Below are positions 2,315-26,084 of a stretch of DNA of 64,000 nucleotides, one piece after another; the first letter of the stretch is position 1, and each line of letters opens with the position of its first letter. Origin of the DNA: an uncultured Massilia sp. GTDB taxonomy: Bacteria > Pseudomonadota > Gammaproteobacteria > Burkholderiales > Burkholderiaceae_D. Where the stretch lies: the NCBI GenBank assembly GCA_963529995.1, contig CAUSCY010000008.1, forward strand, positions 26,933 through 90,932, read 5' to 3'. The notes beneath the pieces were generated by a model. The model was not told the DNA's origin, did no database searches, and saw nothing but the letters and a program-made list of their open reading frames with translations. Both the position numbers and the translations under genes were made by a program.

Positions 2315-3364
2315 CTACCGGGGACTCTCGACCGTATAGCCCTTCGCCGCCAGGTCCGCCAGATAGCCGCGCTCGCCGAGGATGTCCTTCATCTGCAGGA
2401 TGGCGAAGGTCGAGGTATTGCCGGCCAGGGATTTCTCCGCGCTCTGCAGCCAGGCAGCGCGCAGGCGCCCCGGCATGTCCTGGAATTGCGTGTTGTTGCG
2501 GGCGACGGAGCTGTTCAGGATGGCGCTGTTGCAGGCGTCTTCCCGCTCGGTGAAGTTGACGCTGCGGATCTCGGCGATATTGCCGTTGGCCCAGGCATTG
2601 GCACGCGCACGCATGGCGTCGAGGTCGCCATCGATGCTGTCGATGGTCTTCGTGAAGCAGGCGACGTCGTCCATCTGCTGCTTCTTGAATTCCTGGATCA
2701 TCTTGCGCGGCTCTTCCACGTCGAACTCGAAGCCCGTCTTGCTGACCTTGACCTTGTTCTTCCTGGCGATGTCCTCGACGGCCTTGACCACTTGCACGCT
2801 CGTGGCCAGGCCGTTCTTCTTCATGCCGGCCTGGCGCAGTTCCTGGCCGGCGAAGATCGGGCGGTAGCGCTCGACGCCGTCGTCCTCGCCAAGATATTTT
2901 TCCTTGAGGCCCGTCCAGCGCGCATACACGTCGGCCGGCACCACGTCGCGCAACTGGGCGCCGTCCGGGTTCTTCTTCAGGCCGACCAGGCTGGGCAGCA
3001 GAGTAATGCTGCGGAAGAAGCCGACGTGGCCGTTGGCGTTTGGCGGCATCAGCACTTCCTGGGAACTGGCGACGAGGCGTTCGACGCGCGATGCATCCCA
3101 CTCCAGCTTCGCCGGCAGCGGCGAATAGGTACCGAACACCCACATCACGTGCTCGCCCTTGGACACCTTCCACACGCCGGGGCCGGGACGGCGGCCCGAG
3201 ACGACGATCTGCGTCGGCGCTTCGCTCAGTTCGGATGTGGGTTCGGCGGCTGCCTGGTGCGCCTCCTGGCCAGGCTCGGCGGAGGACGCGGGTGCGCCCG
3301 TCTGCGCCAGCGCCGGCAGGGCAAGGACAGCGAAGTACAGCGCGCATGCGGTTCGTTTGCTCAT
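2315..3364 (-). CDS. TraB/GumN family protein, secreted (paralogue)
   Basis: Start taken at ATG 3364 (MSKRTACALYFAVLALPALAQT signal peptide); the track ORF begins at TTG 3406. Collinear similarity to 1259..2293 throughout. Confidence 0.7.
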   Translation of the reverse strand: MSKRTACALYFAVLALPALAQTGAPASSAEPGQEAHQAAAEPTSELSEAPTQIVVSGRRPGPGVWKVSKGEHVMWVFGTYSPLPAKLEWDASRVERLVASSQEVLMPPNANGHVGFFRSITLLPSLVGLKKNPDGAQLRDVVPADVYARWTGLKEKYLGEDDGVERYRPIFAGQELRQAGMKKNGLATSVQVVKAVEDIARKNKVKVSKTGFEFDVEEPRKMIQEFKKQQMDDVACFTKTIDSIDGDLDAMRARANAWANGNIAEIRSVNFTEREDACNSAILNSSVARNNTQFQDMPGRLRAAWLQSAEKSLAGNTSTFAILQMKDILGERGYLADLAAKGYTVESPR

Positions 3365-3460
3365 CGTGCATCCCTTTGTTGTTGTGTCGCGAAAGATTAG
3401 CGACAAGGACGAGCTTAGCCCATCTCAACAACAAAGTGTTACGATTTTGACATGCATATA

Positions 3461-4183
3461 TCAGAGGCCGAGGTCGCCCTGCTCGCCTTCCTCGGGCGGC
3501 CGCTCCAGGAGTTCGTGCGCCAGTTTCAGGCTGTCCACCATGACCTTGAACGCTTCGCGCTTGGCCTCCTCGCTCGGCACGCGCAGCACGTACGAGGGGT
3601 GGTAGGTGGTGACGACCCAGCGGCCTTCGTGCAGCATGGGCTTGCCGAGGGAATTCTTCAGCGTGACGTTGGCGGTGCGCAGCACGGACTTCAATGCCGT
3701 GGCGCCCAGGGCCACGATGACGGTCGGCTGGACGCTGGCGAGTTCCTTGTCGAGCCAGTAGTGGCAGGCCTCGATCTCGCGCTGCACGGGCGTCTTGTGC
3801 AGGCGGCGCTTGCCGCGCGGCTCCCACTTGAAATGCTTGACGGCGTTGGTGACGTAGATCGTGTCGCGGTCCACGCCGGCCTTCTCGCACACGCTGTCGA
3901 GCAACTTGCCGGCCGGGCCGACGAAGGGCTGGCCGGCCAGGTCTTCCTGGTCGCCCGGCTGCTCGCCGACGAACATGATCCGCGCCTTCTTGGGCCCCTC
4001 TCCCGGCACGGCCTGGGTGGCGAATTCCCACAGCTCGCAGCGGCGGCACTCGTCCAGCCTGGACGGCTGCTGGCGTTCGGGCTGGGCATCGGCGGGGGCG
4101 ATGGGAATCGTCGTGCCCTTGCGCTGGCCGACGGCTTCGTACTGACCGACCTTGCGCGCGCCGCGCGCTGCGTCGCCGATCAT
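3461..4183 (-). CDS. UdgX-like family-4 uracil-DNA glycosylase domain protein
   Basis: CRRCELW cysteine pair, motif A GEQPG, motif B HPSYVLR and a KRRLH loop (compare UdgX KRRIH). Same reading frame as the upstream DUF4130 ORF. Confidence 0.85.
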   Translation of the reverse strand: MIGDAARGARKVGQYEAVGQRKGTTIPIAPADAQPERQQPSRLDECRRCELWEFATQAVPGEGPKKARIMFVGEQPGDQEDLAGQPFVGPAGKLLDSVCEKAGVDRDTIYVTNAVKHFKWEPRGKRRLHKTPVQREIEACHYWLDKELASVQPTVIVALGATALKSVLRTANVTLKNSLGKPMLHEGRWVVTTYHPSYVLRVPSEEAKREAFKVMVDSLKLAHELLERPPEEGEQGDLGL

Positions 4184-4216
4184 CTGGGGGACGATCTTCG
4201 CTTCCGGCAGGTTCTT

Positions 4217-4219
4217 TCA
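4217..4219 (-). other. in-frame TGA separating the DUF4130 and UdgX ORFs
   Basis: ...HIASDR-TGA-KNLPEAKIVPQ-M(4183)... The stop codon begins at 4219 and the ATG at 4183, 36 nt (12 codons) apart, so there is no frame change. Confidence 0.9.
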
Positions 4220-4990
4220 GCGGTCCGAGGCGATGTGCTGGTGCATGATGTCCGCGTTCAGGCGCGCCGGGTTGAACACGCTGCGGTAATAGGTCAGCCA
4301 CAGCGCCTCGCCGCTGTCGTCGAGCTCTTCCGGCCCTTTGACGATCGGGCCGGCGTCGTGCAGCGTCTGGCCGTCCCACAGCACGCTCGCCTCGGGCGTG
4401 GCGATCATCCAGCTGACCTTGCCCATGCGCGCGACGAAGTGCCGGGCCACCTGGGGCAGCACGTCGTGGCGCGGCTCGTACCAGGCGACGAAGCGCGGCG
4501 GGCCCGCCTGTTCGGGACGTTCGCGGAATCGGATATAGGCATGCATGTCGTGCTCCTCGCGTCGCACCGCCTTGACCATCGCATTCAGGCGCGCGCCGTC
4601 TTCGTCGGCCGGCGACTGCACGTCGTGCTCGCCCTGCTGCCAGCGCCAGATGACGCGGTACAGGAAGGCCCAGCGGTCCGGCACGCGGCAGCAGGCGGCG
4701 CTCTGCAGCATCTCCATCAACGAACGGGGGATGTGCGGGGCCGGACGGAGCGGCGACTGCGACCGCTCCTGCGCGGACGGCGGTGTGCCTGCATTATCCC
4801 CAGCCGCGTCCGGCGGCGGCGCACTCGTGAGCAGGTCGCCGCCCGTCAGCGGCGAACCCCAGGTGACGTCCTGCGGCGCCACGTCGTGGGCCAGCAGTTC
4901 GCGGGCGGCGTCGCGCCACGCGGCGAAGCCGTCGACCAGCAGCGGCCGGCCGGCGCGCACCTGGTCGATGGCGCCCAGGCCCGTGCTCAT
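4217..4990 (-). CDS. TIGR03915/DUF4130-family putative DNA metabolism protein
   Basis: ATG 4990 overlaps the radical SAM stop as ATGA. Motifs AYIRFRE..., WLTYYRSVFNPARLN are recalled from this family. Confidence 0.75.
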   Translation of the reverse strand: MSTGLGAIDQVRAGRPLLVDGFAAWRDAARELLAHDVAPQDVTWGSPLTGGDLLTSAPPPDAAGDNAGTPPSAQERSQSPLRPAPHIPRSLMEMLQSAACCRVPDRWAFLYRVIWRWQQGEHDVQSPADEDGARLNAMVKAVRREEHDMHAYIRFRERPEQAGPPRFVAWYEPRHDVLPQVARHFVARMGKVSWMIATPEASVLWDGQTLHDAGPIVKGPEELDDSGEALWLTYYRSVFNPARLNADIMHQHIASDR

Positions 4991-6216
4991 GCGGCCTGCA
5001 GTTCCGGCCATAGGTTCATCTGCTCGGGAGCATCGGCCATGCTGCGCCGGAGCAGTTCGGACGAGGCGGCGCCCTGCACCGGCTTGTAGTCCGCGGTGAC
5101 GACGAAGGGCGCCAGCTTCTTCATGCTGCAGCGCAGGCGCGACAGGTCTTCCCAGCGGATGCGGCGCAAGCGGCGCAGGTCGATCAGGCGCTTGGCCGAG
5201 CGCAAGCCGATGCCCGGCACGCGCGCGATCATCATCTCGTCGGCGCGGTTCAAATCGAGCGGAAAGTGTTCGCGGTTGGTCAGCGCCCAGGCCAGCTTGG
5301 GGTCGATGTCGAGCGGCAGGTTGCCCGCCTGCGGGATCAGTTCTCCCGCCGTGAAGCCGTAGCCGCGCAGCAGGAAGTCGGCCTGGTACAGGCGGTGTTC
5401 GCGCAGCAGCGGCGGCGGTGCCGAGGGCACGCTGGACGGGCTCTGCGGGATCGGGCTGAAGGCCGAGTAGTACACGCGCTTGAGCTTGTAGCTACCATAC
5501 AGCGTCTGCGCCGTATTCAGGATGGTGCGGTCGTCGCTGGCGTCGGCGCCGACGATCATCTGCGTGCTCTGCCCCGCCGGCGCAAAGGCCGGCGCCTTCG
5601 GGTGGTCGTCCTTCTCGTCGAGCCTGGTGCGGATGGAACCCATCGCCAGCTTGATCGTGTGGACGTTCTTTTCCGGCGCCAGGCGCGTCACGCTGTCCTG
5701 GGTCGGCAGTTCGATGTTGACGGACAGGCGGTCCGCGTACTTGCCGGCCAGCTCGATCAGGCGCGGGTCGGCATCGGGAATCGTCTTGAGGTGGATGTAG
5801 CCGCGGAACTTGTGCACTTCGCGCAGCCGGCGTGCTACCTCGACCAGCTGCTCCATCGTGTAGTCGCTGGACTGGATGATGCCGGAACTCAGGAACAGCC
5901 CGTCGATGTAGTTGCGCAGGTAGAAGTCCTGCGTCAGCTTGACGACTTCGTCGACCGAGAAACGGGCGCGCGGCACGTTCGAGGTGCGCCGGTTCACGCA
6001 GTACTGGCAATCGTAGATGCAGAAGTTGGTCAGCAGGATCTTCAGCAGCGAGACGCATCTTCCGTCCGGCGTATAGCTGTGGCAGATGCCCATGCCCGTG
6101 GACGCACCCAGGCCGTCCTTGTCCAGCGAGTCGCGCTTGGGCGCGCCGCTGCTGGCACAGGAGGCGTCGTATTTGGCGGCGTCGGCCAGGATCTCCAGCT
6201 TGTCCTTGAGTTCCAT
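4987..6216 (-). CDS. putative DNA modification/repair radical SAM protein (TIGR03916-like)
   Basis: CIYDCQYC (CxxxCxxC) cluster motif. C-terminal HhH-like ARVPGIGLRSAKRLIDLR. ATG 6216 (MELKDKLEIL) has AGGAG 7 nt upstream. Confidence 0.85.
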   Translation of the reverse strand: MELKDKLEILADAAKYDASCASSGAPKRDSLDKDGLGASTGMGICHSYTPDGRCVSLLKILLTNFCIYDCQYCVNRRTSNVPRARFSVDEVVKLTQDFYLRNYIDGLFLSSGIIQSSDYTMEQLVEVARRLREVHKFRGYIHLKTIPDADPRLIELAGKYADRLSVNIELPTQDSVTRLAPEKNVHTIKLAMGSIRTRLDEKDDHPKAPAFAPAGQSTQMIVGADASDDRTILNTAQTLYGSYKLKRVYYSAFSPIPQSPSSVPSAPPPLLREHRLYQADFLLRGYGFTAGELIPQAGNLPLDIDPKLAWALTNREHFPLDLNRADEMMIARVPGIGLRSAKRLIDLRRLRRIRWEDLSRLRCSMKKLAPFVVTADYKPVQGAASSELLRRSMADAPEQMNLWPELQAA

Positions 6217-6229
6217 CCACGGACTCCTG

Positions 6230-6249
6230 TACTGTATGGAAATACAGTA
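6230..6249. promoter_or_regulatory. LexA SOS box (CTGT-N8-ACAG class)
   Basis: TACTGTATGGAAATACAGTA has perfect 8-bp palindromic arms. It lies 14-33 nt upstream of the radical SAM start and abuts its Shine-Dalgarno. Confidence 0.75.
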
Positions 6250-6406
6250 TAACCCGGTGCCGTTGCGCCGACCGTACGCACGCGCACGTCGGCGGGTCAA
6301 ACCCTGGACAGTGTCGGAAAAATGCATATTTTCCGATGCACTGCGGGTCTAAGGAAAAGAGAATGCTACACTTCAAAAGTTGTCCTCAAGACACCTTTGA
6401 AATCCT

Positions 6407-7210
6407 ATGTCCGTACAGTATCGCAACAATGTGCACATCGCCGGAAACGGGCCGGTCACCATGGTGTTTGCCCATGGCTTCGGCTGCGACCAGAGCATGT
6501 GGCGCTTCCTCGCCCCGACCTACGAAGACCGCTTCCGCACCATCCTGTTCGACCTGGTCGGCAGCGGCCGGTCCGACCTGGCGGCCTACGACCGCAGGAA
6601 GTACGGCAGCCTGCACGGCTATGCCGACGACCTGCTGGAGATCATCGATGCCTGCGCATCCGGCCCCGTGGTCTTCGTCGGGCACTCGGTCAGCGCGATG
6701 ATCGGCCTGCTGGCGTCGATCAAGGCGCCCGAGCGCTTCGCGGCCCAGGTCATGGTCGGCCCGTCGCCCAGCTTCATCAACGACGGCGACTACGTCGGCG
6801 GCTTCAACCGCGAGGACATCGGCATCCTGCTCGAGACCATGGAAGACAACTTCGCGGCCTGGTCGGAAAAAGTGGCGCCGATGATCATGGGCGCGCCCAA
6901 CCAGCCGGAGCTGGGCACGGAACTGATCGAAAGCTTCTGTCGCAACGATCCATCGATCGCCAAGCATTTCGCGCGCGTGACCTTTCTCGCCGACCACCGG
7001 GCCGACCTGCCCAAATCGACCGTGCCGGCCCTGATCCTGGAATGCAGCGACGACCTGATCGTGCCGCGCGAAGTGGGCGCCTACATGCAGCGCCATCTGC
7101 CGAACAGCACGCTGGCCGTGATCGACAACGTCGGCCACTGCCCGCACCTGAGCGCGCCGACGGCGAGCTCGCGCGTGATCGACGCATTCCTGGCGCAGAC
7201 GCTGGGCTGA
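6407..7210 (+). CDS. RsbQ/KAI2/D14-type alpha/beta hydrolase
   Basis: VFAHGFGCDQSMWRF, nucleophile elbow GHSVSA, acid residue in ECSDDLIVP, histidine in VGHCPHLSAP. Collinear with B. subtilis RsbQ as I recall it. Confidence 0.85.
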   Translation: MSVQYRNNVHIAGNGPVTMVFAHGFGCDQSMWRFLAPTYEDRFRTILFDLVGSGRSDLAAYDRRKYGSLHGYADDLLEIIDACASGPVVFVGHSVSAMIGLLASIKAPERFAAQVMVGPSPSFINDGDYVGGFNREDIGILLETMEDNFAAWSEKVAPMIMGAPNQPELGTELIESFCRNDPSIAKHFARVTFLADHRADLPKSTVPALILECSDDLIVPREVGAYMQRHLPNSTLAVIDNVGHCPHLSAPTASSRVIDAFLAQTLG

Positions 7211-7214
7211 GCGC

Positions 7215-7694
7215 TCAGGCGTCGAACAGGGACCTGAGCAGGCGGCGGTGGACGTTCAGCATCACGTACGGTCCGCTGACCAGCAGCGCATCGCCGCCCA
7301 TCGCCATCTTCACGTCCTGCTCCTTCCAGCGCATCCAGCGCGGGCCCTTGCGCCGGTAGCGGTGCACCCCCGCGTCGAGACCGGCATACGCGAAGCCGCG
7401 CGCCAGCATCCGGTCCTCGAGGACGCTGAAGGCCTGCGCCCGTCCTGGTCCGCGCACCCGCATGTGCGAGGGGCGCGCCAGCCAGACCGACGGCAGGCTG
7501 CCGGCCAGCGCGCCGACGAGGGGCAGCTCGGCGAGCGCGCCGGCGCCGTTATGCCACCAGATCAGCAGGGCGCCTGCGGCGCACACGAGCGCCACGCAGC
7601 ACGCCCAGCTGAGGAACTGGGAGCGCGAGTTGAACAGCAACCACCGGCGCCATCCCGTGGCGGTCGCCTGGATCTCGCCCAGCTCGATCCTCAC
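7215..7694 (-). CDS. hypothetical small membrane protein (2 predicted TM helices)
   Basis: GTG 7694 overlaps the Sel1 gene stop as GTGA. Hydrophobic segments FLSWACCVALVCAAGALLIWW and LAELPLVGALAGSLPSVWL. Good GC3. No family recognised. Confidence 0.5.
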   Translation of the reverse strand: MRIELGEIQATATGWRRWLLFNSRSQFLSWACCVALVCAAGALLIWWHNGAGALAELPLVGALAGSLPSVWLARPSHMRVRGPGRAQAFSVLEDRMLARGFAYAGLDAGVHRYRRKGPRWMRWKEQDVKMAMGGDALLVSGPYVMLNVHRRLLRSLFDA

Positions 7695-9274
7695 GCCGCG
7701 CCCACGTAGCCGTTGGCCTGCGCCAGCAGCGCCGGCTCCATGCGCGCCGCGACGCGCTGCAGGTAGCTCGATGCGCCCGCCACGCCGCCCGCGGCGGCGC
7801 GGTGCAGCCAGGCATACGCCTCGACGGGATCGGCCTGCACGCCCTGCCCGGCCGCGTACATCACCCCGAGGTTGAACTGGGCCCGTGCATGGCCCTGGCG
7901 CGCCGCGCACAGGTACCAGAAATGCGCGGCCTCGACATCGTGTTCGGCACCGTTGCCGCTGTCGTGGCGCAGGCCCAGCGCGAACTGGGCCAGCGCATGG
8001 CCCCGGTCGGCCGCCTTGCGGTACCAGCCCGTCGCCTGGCGCGGATCGACGGTGCCGCCGTCGTCGCGGTCCAGCAGCCGGCCCAGCGCGTACTGGGCCG
8101 GCGCGTAGTCCTGCTCGGCCGCCTTGCGGTACCAGTACAGCGCTTCTCCCTCGTCGCGCGCCGTGCCGGCGCTGCCGTGCTCGTAGCGCAGCGCCAGGTC
8201 GAACTGGGCGCGCAGGTGGCCCTGCTCGGCCGCGCGGCGGTACCAGTCCAGCGCCTCGCTTGCTTGATTCTGTGCCCCGTCATGGCCGGCGTCGAGCAAT
8301 TGGGCGAGGTGGTACTGGGCGCCGGCAAAGCCCTGTTCGGCCGCCTGGCGGTACCAGTGCGCGGCTTGCGCGTAGTCCTGGCCGACGCCCTGCCCATGCT
8401 CGTAGGCGAGGCCGAGGTTGTCCTGGGCGCCCGCGTGGCCCTGGGCGGCGGCGCGGCGGTACCATGCCAGCGCCAGCGCCGGATCGCGCACCGTGCCGTG
8501 GCCGCCGTCGTGCACGAGGGCCAGGTTGAACTGCGAACTCGCATGGCCCTGCTCGGCCGCGCGGCCGTACCACAGGATCGCCTTGGCGCTGTCCTGCGGC
8601 AGGTCGAGGCCCTTGTCGTAGCGCAGGCCGAGGTTGAACTGGGCCGGCGCATAGCCCTGCTCCGCCGCCTTGCGCAGCCAGCCGACGGCCTGGGCCGGAT
8701 CGCGCTCCACGCCCTGGCCGCTGTCGTGGCGCAGCGCCAGGTTGAACTGGGCGCGCGCGTAGTTCTGCTCGGCGGCCTTGCGGTACCAGGCCACGGCCTG
8801 CGCCACGTCCTGGGGCACGCCCTTGCCGCCCTCGTACATCATCGCGAGATTGTGCTGGGCGCCCGGGTCGCCCTGTTCGGCGGCGCGGCTGAACCAGTGC
8901 AGCGCCTGGCGCACGTCGGCCTGCACGCCCTGGCCCTTCGCGTAGAGCCACCCCAGGTTGTACTGGGCCTGGGCATAGCCCTGCTCGGCCGCCTGGCGGT
9001 ACCAGTACACGGCCTGGGCCAGGTCCTGCGGCACGCCCTGTCCCTTCTGGTACATCACGCCCAGGTTGTACTGCGCCTGTTCCAGGCCGGCGCTGGCGGC
9101 CATGCGGTACCAGGCCACGGCCAGCTCGTCGCTCTGCGCCACGCCCTGGCCGTGCGCGTACATGAAGCCCAGGCTGTGCTGGGCATGGGCGACGCCGCGC
9201 TCGGCCAGCGCCTTCACGCGCAGGAATTCGGCCGTGTGGCGGCTGTCGGCGGTCGTGGCGGCGGCAACGGACAT
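7691..9274 (-). CDS. Sel1-repeat (TPR-like) protein, about 13 repeats
   Basis: Iterated 36-aa units of the form AxxWYRKAAEQGxAxAQxNLGxxYxxGxGV. No signal peptide seen. Confidence 0.85.
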   Translation of the reverse strand: MSVAAATTADSRHTAEFLRVKALAERGVAHAQHSLGFMYAHGQGVAQSDELAVAWYRMAASAGLEQAQYNLGVMYQKGQGVPQDLAQAVYWYRQAAEQGYAQAQYNLGWLYAKGQGVQADVRQALHWFSRAAEQGDPGAQHNLAMMYEGGKGVPQDVAQAVAWYRKAAEQNYARAQFNLALRHDSGQGVERDPAQAVGWLRKAAEQGYAPAQFNLGLRYDKGLDLPQDSAKAILWYGRAAEQGHASSQFNLALVHDGGHGTVRDPALALAWYRRAAAQGHAGAQDNLGLAYEHGQGVGQDYAQAAHWYRQAAEQGFAGAQYHLAQLLDAGHDGAQNQASEALDWYRRAAEQGHLRAQFDLALRYEHGSAGTARDEGEALYWYRKAAEQDYAPAQYALGRLLDRDDGGTVDPRQATGWYRKAADRGHALAQFALGLRHDSGNGAEHDVEAAHFWYLCAARQGHARAQFNLGVMYAAGQGVQADPVEAYAWLHRAAAGGVAGASSYLQRVAARMEPALLAQANGYVGAA

Positions 9275-24836: not shown

Positions 24837-25448
24837 TCACTCCCCCTTCGCCGACTTCTCGCGCGAGCGCTTCAGGTCGGACAGCGACTCGTCCTCGGAC
24901 TTGGTCTCGTACTTCGAGATGCCGATCAGGCGGTTGATGTAGTCGCGTTCGCTCGGCAGGTTGCCGCCGTCGATGCGGGCGACCTGGTTGTCCTTGAAGA
25001 AGACGGTGACGCGGCTGGTGGTCAGCTCGCCGTTGCCGCGTGCGAGGTAGAACGGGTAATCCCAGCGGTCGGCGTGGAAGGCGTCGGTCAGCAGCGGGGT
25101 GCCGAGGATGAACTTGACCTGGTCGCGGGTCTGGCCGACCTTCAGCTGGTTCAGCATTTCCTGCGAAACGAAGTTACCTTGCTGGATGTCCGGACGGTAG
25201 GGAGAAAACACCCACAGGAATTTCTGCAGCTTGGTGACGGTGGTGGTTTGCGCGCCGGAGTTGGCGATTGCCGCGGACTTGTCGGCATCGGCGGCGGCCG
25301 CGGCAGGCGCGGTGCTCACCGGGGCTGCCGGCTTGGTCTGGTTGCGCCAGGATGCGCAGCCCGAGACCAGCAGCGCCGTGCAGGCGAGGCCGGCCACGAG
25401 CGCGGCCCGCGCGTGGGAACGATGGAGAACGGCTTTCTTGGTGCGCAT
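24837..25448 (-). CDS. bamE: outer membrane protein assembly factor BamE
   Basis: Lipobox VSGC. SmpA/OmlA core [33 protein letters not shown]. Confidence 0.8.
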
Positions 25449-25652
25449 AGACTGACCTTAAAATCGATGGAGAACCGCGTAATGCTTGCTGCACGCCGCC
25501 CGGCTGGGAGAAAATACGCGCTGTACATCCGTACAGTCGAATTTGTTGTAAAAACGACCAGCGGTCACGACGTTTTTCGCAGCCTCCGTATGAGCGGGAG
25601 CTCCGAAAACGCTATATCATAAAGCACTCCGCCCATATACGAGTAACAAAAC

Positions 25653-26084
25653 ATGAGCAACAACCCAACCGACCTGAAGGCCAGCGGCCTCAAAGCGACG
25701 CTGCCGCGCCTGAAAATCCTGGAGATATTCCAGAACAGTCCGGTACGGCACCTGACGGCGGAAGACGTCTACAAGACCCTGCTGAGCGATAACATGGACG
25801 TGGGCCTGGCCACCGTCTACCGCGTGCTGACCCAGTTCGAACAGGCTGGCCTGCTGAACCGCAACCACTTCGAAACCGGCAAGGCGATCTACGAACTGAA
25901 CGCCGGCTCGCACCACGACCACCTGGTCTGCCTCGATTGCGGCCACGTGGAAGAGTTCTACGACGAGGAAATCGAAAGCCGCCAGACCAAGATCGCGGCC
26001 GAGCGCGGCTTCAAGATCGCCGAACACGCGCTGGCCATCTACGGCAACTGCGTCAAGACGGACTGCCCGCGCCGCAATAACTGA
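25653..26084 (+). CDS. fur: ferric uptake regulator
   Basis: LKILEIF...HLTAEDVYK winged helix. HHDHLVCLDCGHVEEF metal site. Confidence 0.95.
   Translation: MSNNPTDLKASGLKATLPRLKILEIFQNSPVRHLTAEDVYKTLLSDNMDVGLATVYRVLTQFEQAGLLNRNHFETGKAIYELNAGSHHDHLVCLDCGHVEEFYDEEIESRQTKIAAERGFKIAEHALAIYGNCVKTDCPRRNN

Follow-up and report, generated by a model that had tools for sequence, protein, structure and literature searches.

The 64,000-nucleotide (nt) stretch of DNA analysed here, referred to as the window, comes from an uncultured Massilia sp. (GenBank assembly GCA_963529995.1, contig CAUSCY010000008.1, positions 26,933 to 90,932), and all coordinates below are window positions. Its minus strand carries an operon whose second gene, a fusion of a DUF4130 domain and a UdgX-type uracil-DNA glycosylase (UDG) domain, is interrupted by a single in-frame TGA. 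The first gene of the operon (4987-6216, minus strand) encodes a radical S-adenosylmethionine (radical-SAM) enzyme, which scores 536 bits against TIGR03916 (cut-off 343.5) and has the motif CIYDCQYC (CX3CX2C) in its translation. The radical-SAM stop and the start of the DUF4130 frame share an ATGA at 4990-4987, an overlap already pointed out in a preliminary description of the locus. In front of the operon lies a predicted LexA (SOS) site, the box CTGTATGGAAATACAG, which is an exact match to CTGT-N8-ACAG within TACTGTATTTCCATACAGTA on the minus strand (6232-6247). This LexA-type operator is located 15 nt upstream of the radical-SAM start and is followed by an AGGAG Shine-Dalgarno sequence.

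The minus-strand frame that opens at ATG 4990 is 1530 nt long, i.e., exactly 510 codons. It contains one internal stop, TGA 4219-4217 at codon 258, and ends at the terminal stop 3463-3461. The whole interval (3461-4990) is best described as an ancestral single DUF4130-UdgX gene of 509 codons and a stop, interrupted at codon 258, since it is one continuous open reading frame (ORF) in all 160 relatives examined below. The part before the stop (4217-4990, minus strand) is a truncated DUF4130/TIGR03915 frame of 257 amino acids (aa) and the TGA. Its peptide ends with NADIMHQHIASDR and lacks the C-terminal W-K-N-L-P-E segment, while the TIGR03915 match extends beyond the stop. The TGA itself (4217-4219, minus strand) stands in a UGA-A context at what is otherwise an invariant TGG Trp codon, from which it differs by a third-position G-to-A change (C-to-T on the plus strand). 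After the stop the same frame continues with eleven codons, KNLPEAKIVPQ (4184-4216, minus strand), the most conserved part of the junction among the 160 relatives, and then reaches the Met codon ATG 4183 (MIGDAARG...), 36 nt or 12 codons from the TGA. From this internal Met, an ORF of 240 aa (3461-4183, minus strand) encodes the UdgX-type family-4 UDG domain (TIGR03914), with the UdgX-homologous core starting at residue 42 of the ORF. If Trp replaces the stop, the frame yields a 509-aa protein in which the junction peptide spanning Trp-258 reads ASDRWKNLPEAK. The coordinates, the 12-codon spacing and the continuity of the frame given in the preliminary description were all correct when the sequence was read again.

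Codon 258 was compared in 161 sequences, the window and 160 related loci, of which 80 are Massilia/Telluria loci from a scan with one genome per species and 80 come from a metagenome scan. The aligned codon is TGG in 160/160 relatives and a stop in none of them. The ORF runs unbroken through the junction to its stop in every relative, with a length of about 500 aa, although its 5' part is cut by a contig end in four loci. The same picture is obtained from the best 120 protein matches (70-93% identity), all of which are fused and contain both Pfam domains. Their length is 460-575 aa in nearly all cases. Three, at 402-414 aa, align to about 80% of the query only and appear to be incomplete. Thus, the earlier proposal that the TGA occupies the place of an expected Trp codon, and that one A-to-G change would restore a 509-aa fusion, holds.

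The nearest relatives, Massilia sp. YIM B02763 (L001) and Massilia sp. TN1-12 (L002), are 92% identical to the window at the nucleotide level and collinear with it over 7.2 kb. Their fused UdgX family proteins share 92-93% aa identity with the window frame over the whole 509 residues, and they are found in the same operon, with the radical-SAM gene upstream, the LexA box in the promoter and the same flanking genes. However, both have TGG at codon 258, as do the 158 other relatives, where the window has TGA. Within the motif, this third-position G-to-A change is the only difference between the window and L001 or L002. The metagenome scan did not provide any relative closer than about 88% (a partial match; full-length matches are at 82-84%), and L001 and L002 are still the closest.

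Conservation around the junction is very high in the 160 relatives. W258, L261, P262 and E263 are found in 100% of them, K259 and V267 in 99%, while the Asn of the motif has a conservation of 0.93 and the Pro of KIVPQ of 0.91. The W(K/R)NLPE motif given in the preliminary description is therefore real. In a broader sample, made of representatives at no more than 50% mutual identity, Trp is present in about 116 of the 127 proteins that cover the region, and none of the 270 homologues retrieved ends at codon 258. The preliminary description had named two outcomes that would speak against it, a stop conserved in relatives and a lack of homology across the junction; the alignment of the TGA column gave neither. 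Judged from these sequences, the comparison shows that the TGA at codon 258 is derived and unique to the window. In the annotation sense, the gene qualifies as an internal-stop pseudogene: compared with its full-length orthologues it has one premature stop, past which homology continues in frame.

Seven of the homologues (P0122, P0145, P0124, P0248, P0169, P0200 and P0201; 230-314 aa) at first resemble short stand-alone DUF4130 proteins. Their similarity ends suddenly at the Trp motif or a little to either side of it and is followed by Arg/Pro/Ser-rich sequence, as would be expected of frameshifted copies of a fused gene or, for the shortest, possibly of a stand-alone gene. Sporadic disruption of the DUF4130 gene, or sequencing error in it, is thus not unique to the window.

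The identity of the two halves is clear from profile searches, for which the stop was read as Trp throughout. The first half matches NCBIfam TIGR03915 (DUF4130-type putative DNA repair protein) at residues 20-264 with 181.7 bits (cut-off 112.25) and Pfam DUF4130 at residues 104-263 with 114.2 bits (cut-off 27). The second half matches NCBIfam TIGR03914 (UdgX family uracil-DNA binding protein) at residues 294-490 with 262.3 bits (cut-off 189.95) and Pfam UDG at residues 329-485 with 123.8 bits (cut-off 24.3). With both DUF4130 profiles, the alignment passes the stop at residue 258 and reaches the last profile position (243/243 for TIGR03915 and 146/146 for Pfam DUF4130), so homology continues through the junction. 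No single translated product therefore holds a complete DUF4130 domain, as the stop replaces the Trp and the positions for residues 258-264 fall past it.

The downstream half aligns over the whole UdgX fold with the structures of Mycolicibacterium smegmatis UdgX (PDB 6AIL, 6AJO, 6IO9 and others; E=1e-51). GEQPGD, KRRLH (aligned to KRRIH) and HPS are all matched, and the His of KRRLH corresponds to the residue that forms the covalent DNA link of UdgX. Assignment to the UdgX branch thus follows from a TIGR03914 score above the cut-off together with motif A, the KRR(L)H loop with its His, and motif B. However, M. smegmatis UdgX stands alone, with a length of about 209 aa and a separate start, while the window domain makes up the C-terminal half of a DUF4130 fusion and lacks its own translation signals. 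For the DUF4130 half, a sequence search of the PDB did not find a solved homologue, and the AlphaFold2 model of a 93%-identical fused homologue (P0001) was too poor to be used (mean predicted local distance difference test score 59.6, below 50 for residues 217-328).

The regulatory context of the gene is also conserved. The CTGT-N8-ACAG box is present at the equivalent promoter position in 134/136 Massilia/Telluria relatives, which suggests that the cassette is an SOS-induced operon. From this promoter pattern, the radical-SAM-DUF4130-UdgX cassette appears to be a conserved member of the SOS regulon in the genus. A published analysis of SOS neighbourhoods connects DUF4130 with uracil-DNA glycosylases and SplB-like radical-SAM enzymes (PMC3765255). 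In another, a radical-SAM enzyme was modelled in tight association with a stand-alone DUF4130 protein, which probably guides nucleic-acid binding (bioRxiv 10.64898/2026.08.19.745780).

Apart from codon 258, the gene is intact. Over all 509 residues, the stop is the only state unique to the window at columns conserved in at least 90% of the sequences, and control sequences have 0-1 such states; the change is therefore recent. The half after the stop has a ratio of nonsynonymous to synonymous substitution rates (dN/dS) of 0.10-0.12 against the two nearest relatives. In this half (3461-4216), the window branch carries about 13 nonsynonymous changes versus about 3 each on the L001 and L002 branches, with similar synonymous counts. 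Such an excess could indicate relaxed constraint, although it falls short of significance (p=0.06). All ten window-unique residues after the stop fall in variable columns; several of them are common in other members of the genus and, from the alignment, are probably ancestral. Relaxed selection past the stop was rejected because the excess does not reach significance and the changes are confined to variable columns. As the downstream half shows no decay, the stop must be of very recent origin, if it is real at all.

We suggest, with moderate confidence, that the TGA is a real and recent nonsense allele of the DUF4130-UdgX gene, i.e., a leaky hypomorph or a nascent pseudogene. A recent, lineage-specific G-to-A transition would have turned the invariant TGG of Trp-258 into TGA in a Massilia-like betaproteobacterium, and the gene hit would be the second cistron of a LexA-box operon headed by a TIGR03916 radical-SAM enzyme. 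Most ribosomes would then terminate at codon 258 and release a 257-aa DUF4130 fragment without the W-K-N-L-P-E segment. Little UdgX domain would be made, as ATG 4183 lacks a usable Shine-Dalgarno sequence. A few ribosomes, on the order of 1% by analogy with E. coli, may misread the UGA-A through the normal tRNA-Trp. Because the misreading tRNA carries the ancestral residue, the readthrough product would be exactly the wild-type 509-aa protein. Since some wild-type protein would be restored in this way, the allele could be seen as a leaky loss of function, by which an accessory and dispensable repair gene is starting to become a pseudogene. The gene is continuous in all 160 relatives, which argues for an ordinary recent nonsense mutation (or a base-call error) and not for special decoding. 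We infer that the TGA is not an evolved device for recoding or for splitting the gene.

Some observations weigh against a real nonsense allele. An exact look-up of five window proteins (the UdgX ORF, the DUF4130 ORF, the radical-SAM enzyme, the hydrolase and a TraB-family protein) found no record of a second assembly, and from the consensus of a single assembly a real mutation and a base-call error are indistinguishable. The total absence of secondary decay fits an artefact equally well. The fates ascribed to the two halves and the level of readthrough are carried over from E. coli by analogy.

A sequencing or assembly error is therefore the alternative to be taken most seriously, although we consider it unlikely. 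The genome would then have TGG, and the A would be a consensus miscall, for example at a homopolymer boundary (GGAAG/GAAAG) in a long-read assembly. Miscalls of this type occur in nanopore data, and GGAAG to GAAAG involves two adjacent short homopolymers whose total length does not change. A single-base change that is unique among 161 sequences, in a gene that is otherwise perfectly conserved and has no second lesion, is also what an error would leave behind. However, substitution errors are rare in consensus sequence, while in GC-rich bacteria real mutations are most often G:C-to-A:T transitions. The surroundings do not look error-prone either. For ten ORFs and the radical-SAM gene, the match covers essentially the full length of the family profile. 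The two TraB-family genes likewise cover their Pfam profile, and the Sel1 protein has its full array of 13 repeats. No frameshifts or broken genes were found in the ORFs checked (the ten, the radical-SAM gene and three further ones), and the 7.2 kb shared with L001 and L002 are collinear. The end-to-end Pfam coverage of ten other genes shows that errors are not widespread in the assembly. Of the explanations offered in the preliminary description, the data favour a base-call error or a recent nonsense change, while its readthrough survives only in passive form.

If the stop is real, it can be asked whether readthrough could be more than passive. For E. coli, UGA is described as the stop most often misread, by tRNA-Trp and particularly before A (PMC5289835, citing Engelberg-Kulka 1981), so that the UGA-A context at codon 258 would be the leakiest one for this tRNA. 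The leaky UGA-A of E. coli, as in the coat/A1 pair of phage Q-beta, resembles the window in the stop, the A at +4, the near-cognate tRNA and the Trp inserted. By analogy with coat/A1, the gene could maintain two products: a 257-aa DUF4130 protein, which would act together with the radical-SAM enzyme, and the 509-aa fusion in minor amounts. The residue inserted would be precisely the ancestral one. In nature, DUF4130 is found both alone and fused, with 43 and 57 cases, respectively, among the representatives, and the downstream half is still under purifying selection at the scale of the branch. We nevertheless regard a maintained dual product as improbable. The low dN/dS is equally expected of a very young stop, and the stop is absent from all relatives. 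All natural stand-alone DUF4130 proteins have kept a segment that is missing from the 257-aa product. The A at +4 is there because the conserved Lys-259 codon begins with it; the context was thus inherited and not selected.

Nothing around the stop resembles a stimulatory element. No RNA structure beyond that of shuffled sequences was found in the 91 nt around and downstream of it (z=-0.09), and a search of Rfam with positions 3300-6500 gave no match at E<=1, the selenocysteine insertion sequence (SECIS) element included. A programmed readthrough element is ruled out by the absence of the stop in relatives, of structure and of any Rfam match. With nothing conserved or structured around the stop, readthrough can only be passive, unselected UGA-A leakiness. 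In Q-beta the coat stop is conserved and the A1 extension is a functional product. However, the window stop is unique to one sequence, and its "extension" is the rest of the ancestral gene. A related possibility, to which we likewise give little credence, is that a real TGA is tolerated through misreading by tRNA-Trp. The operon would then provide mostly DUF4130 fragment and a small, SOS-scaled amount of exact wild-type fusion, either as a snapshot of the interconversion between fused and split forms or as a selected dosage-tuning allele.

A viable fission of the gene is another improbable outcome. Here, translation would stop at 4217 and re-initiate at ATG 4183, so that DUF4130 and UdgX would be made as two proteins. 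It is common in the family for each domain to have a gene of its own, and stand-alone TIGR03915/DUF4130 proteins occur beside TIGR03916 radical-SAM enzymes with the same domain and the same adjacency as in the window (e.g., the Lachnospiraceae pair in bioRxiv 10.64898/2026.08.19.745780). However, all stand-alone DUF4130 proteins retain W-x-x-[LM]-P-E and extend 11-68 aa past the Trp, and none of them ends at or before it, while the 257-aa window product ends one residue short of this motif. With a stop at 4217 and a restart at 4183, the Trp codon and the next 11 codons (WKNLPEAKIVPQ), including the invariant W..LPE residues, would be in neither product.

The start of the second protein is equally problematic. 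ATG 4183 is the sole in-frame start ahead of the UdgX core, and the 240-aa ORF would hold a complete UdgX domain, the whole of what M. smegmatis UdgX consists of as a stand-alone protein. Ribosomes are reportedly able to scan short distances to a nearby start after termination, and re-initiation 36 nt past the stop is conceivable; nothing was found in its support. Pairing of the anti-Shine-Dalgarno sequence with the 20 nt ahead of ATG 4183 reaches only -1.5 kcal/mol, which is weaker than for 80% of all 1745 ATGs in the window and compares with -6.9 for the radical-SAM start. This agrees with the earlier remark that no obvious Shine-Dalgarno sequence precedes this ATG. The Met is a pre-existing internal residue, found in 118/160 relatives, with Leu in the other 42. 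No internal promoter or terminator was found between the genes of the operon. A boundary inside a conserved motif and a Shine-Dalgarno pairing of this strength are not those of a natural pair of DUF4130 and UdgX genes.

Specialised decoding can be dismissed: although UGA is the codon used both for selenocysteine and for Trp by reassignment or suppression, and bacterial tRNA-Trp variants reading UGA have been described (PMC13092985), selenocysteine is ruled out by the Trp (not Cys or selenocysteine) of the relatives, the lack of a hairpin or SECIS-like fold and the lack of an Rfam match, a nearby suppressor tRNA is ruled out as the 64-kb window contains no tRNA gene, and a UGA-to-Trp code is effectively refuted because TGA is the commonest ordinary stop, ending 28/53 gene-like ORFs in the window, among them the radical-SAM and UdgX frames.

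A recent nonsense allele has a simple consequence for annotation. The two ORFs should be treated as one DUF4130-UdgX gene with an internal stop, either as a pseudogene or as a position to verify, and neither as two genes nor as a case of recoding. A single-base loss of TGG to TGA of this sort is an ordinary and already known kind of event, and the stop itself tells nothing new about translation. The wider cassette, a LexA-controlled radical-SAM enzyme with DUF4130-UdgX, is uncharacterised and biologically interesting. The natural nonsense allele and an isogenic TGG revertant could serve as a ready mutant for the role of the cassette after DNA damage.

The window contains a second exact CTGT-N8-ACAG match, CTGTACATCCGTACAG at 25521-25536. 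It is located in the intergenic region of two divergent genes, one BamE-like (24837-25457, minus strand) and the other fur (25647-26084, plus strand). The number of matches in the window is thus two, versus 0.42 expected.

The neighbourhood of the operon has some further features. Two tandem paralogues of the TraB/PrgY/GumN family (1259-2293 and 2315-3364, minus strand; 344 and 349 aa) are the next genes downstream of UdgX. They have signal-peptide-like N-termini, share the motif GRRPGPGVWKV and, in a part of their sequence, are about 76% identical in DNA. An 11-nt perfect inverted repeat, CTTTGTTGTTG / CAACAACAAAG (3374-3384 and 3426-3436, with 41 nt between the arms), is found in the AT-richer intergenic stretch that follows the UdgX stop; it has no terminator-like T-tract. 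On the other side, an alpha/beta hydrolase gene (6407-7210) is divergent from the operon and separates it from the gene of a 527-aa protein (7691-9274, minus strand). This protein, about 1.5 kb upstream of the operon, consists almost wholly of 13 Sel1 repeats and has no evident link to the stop.

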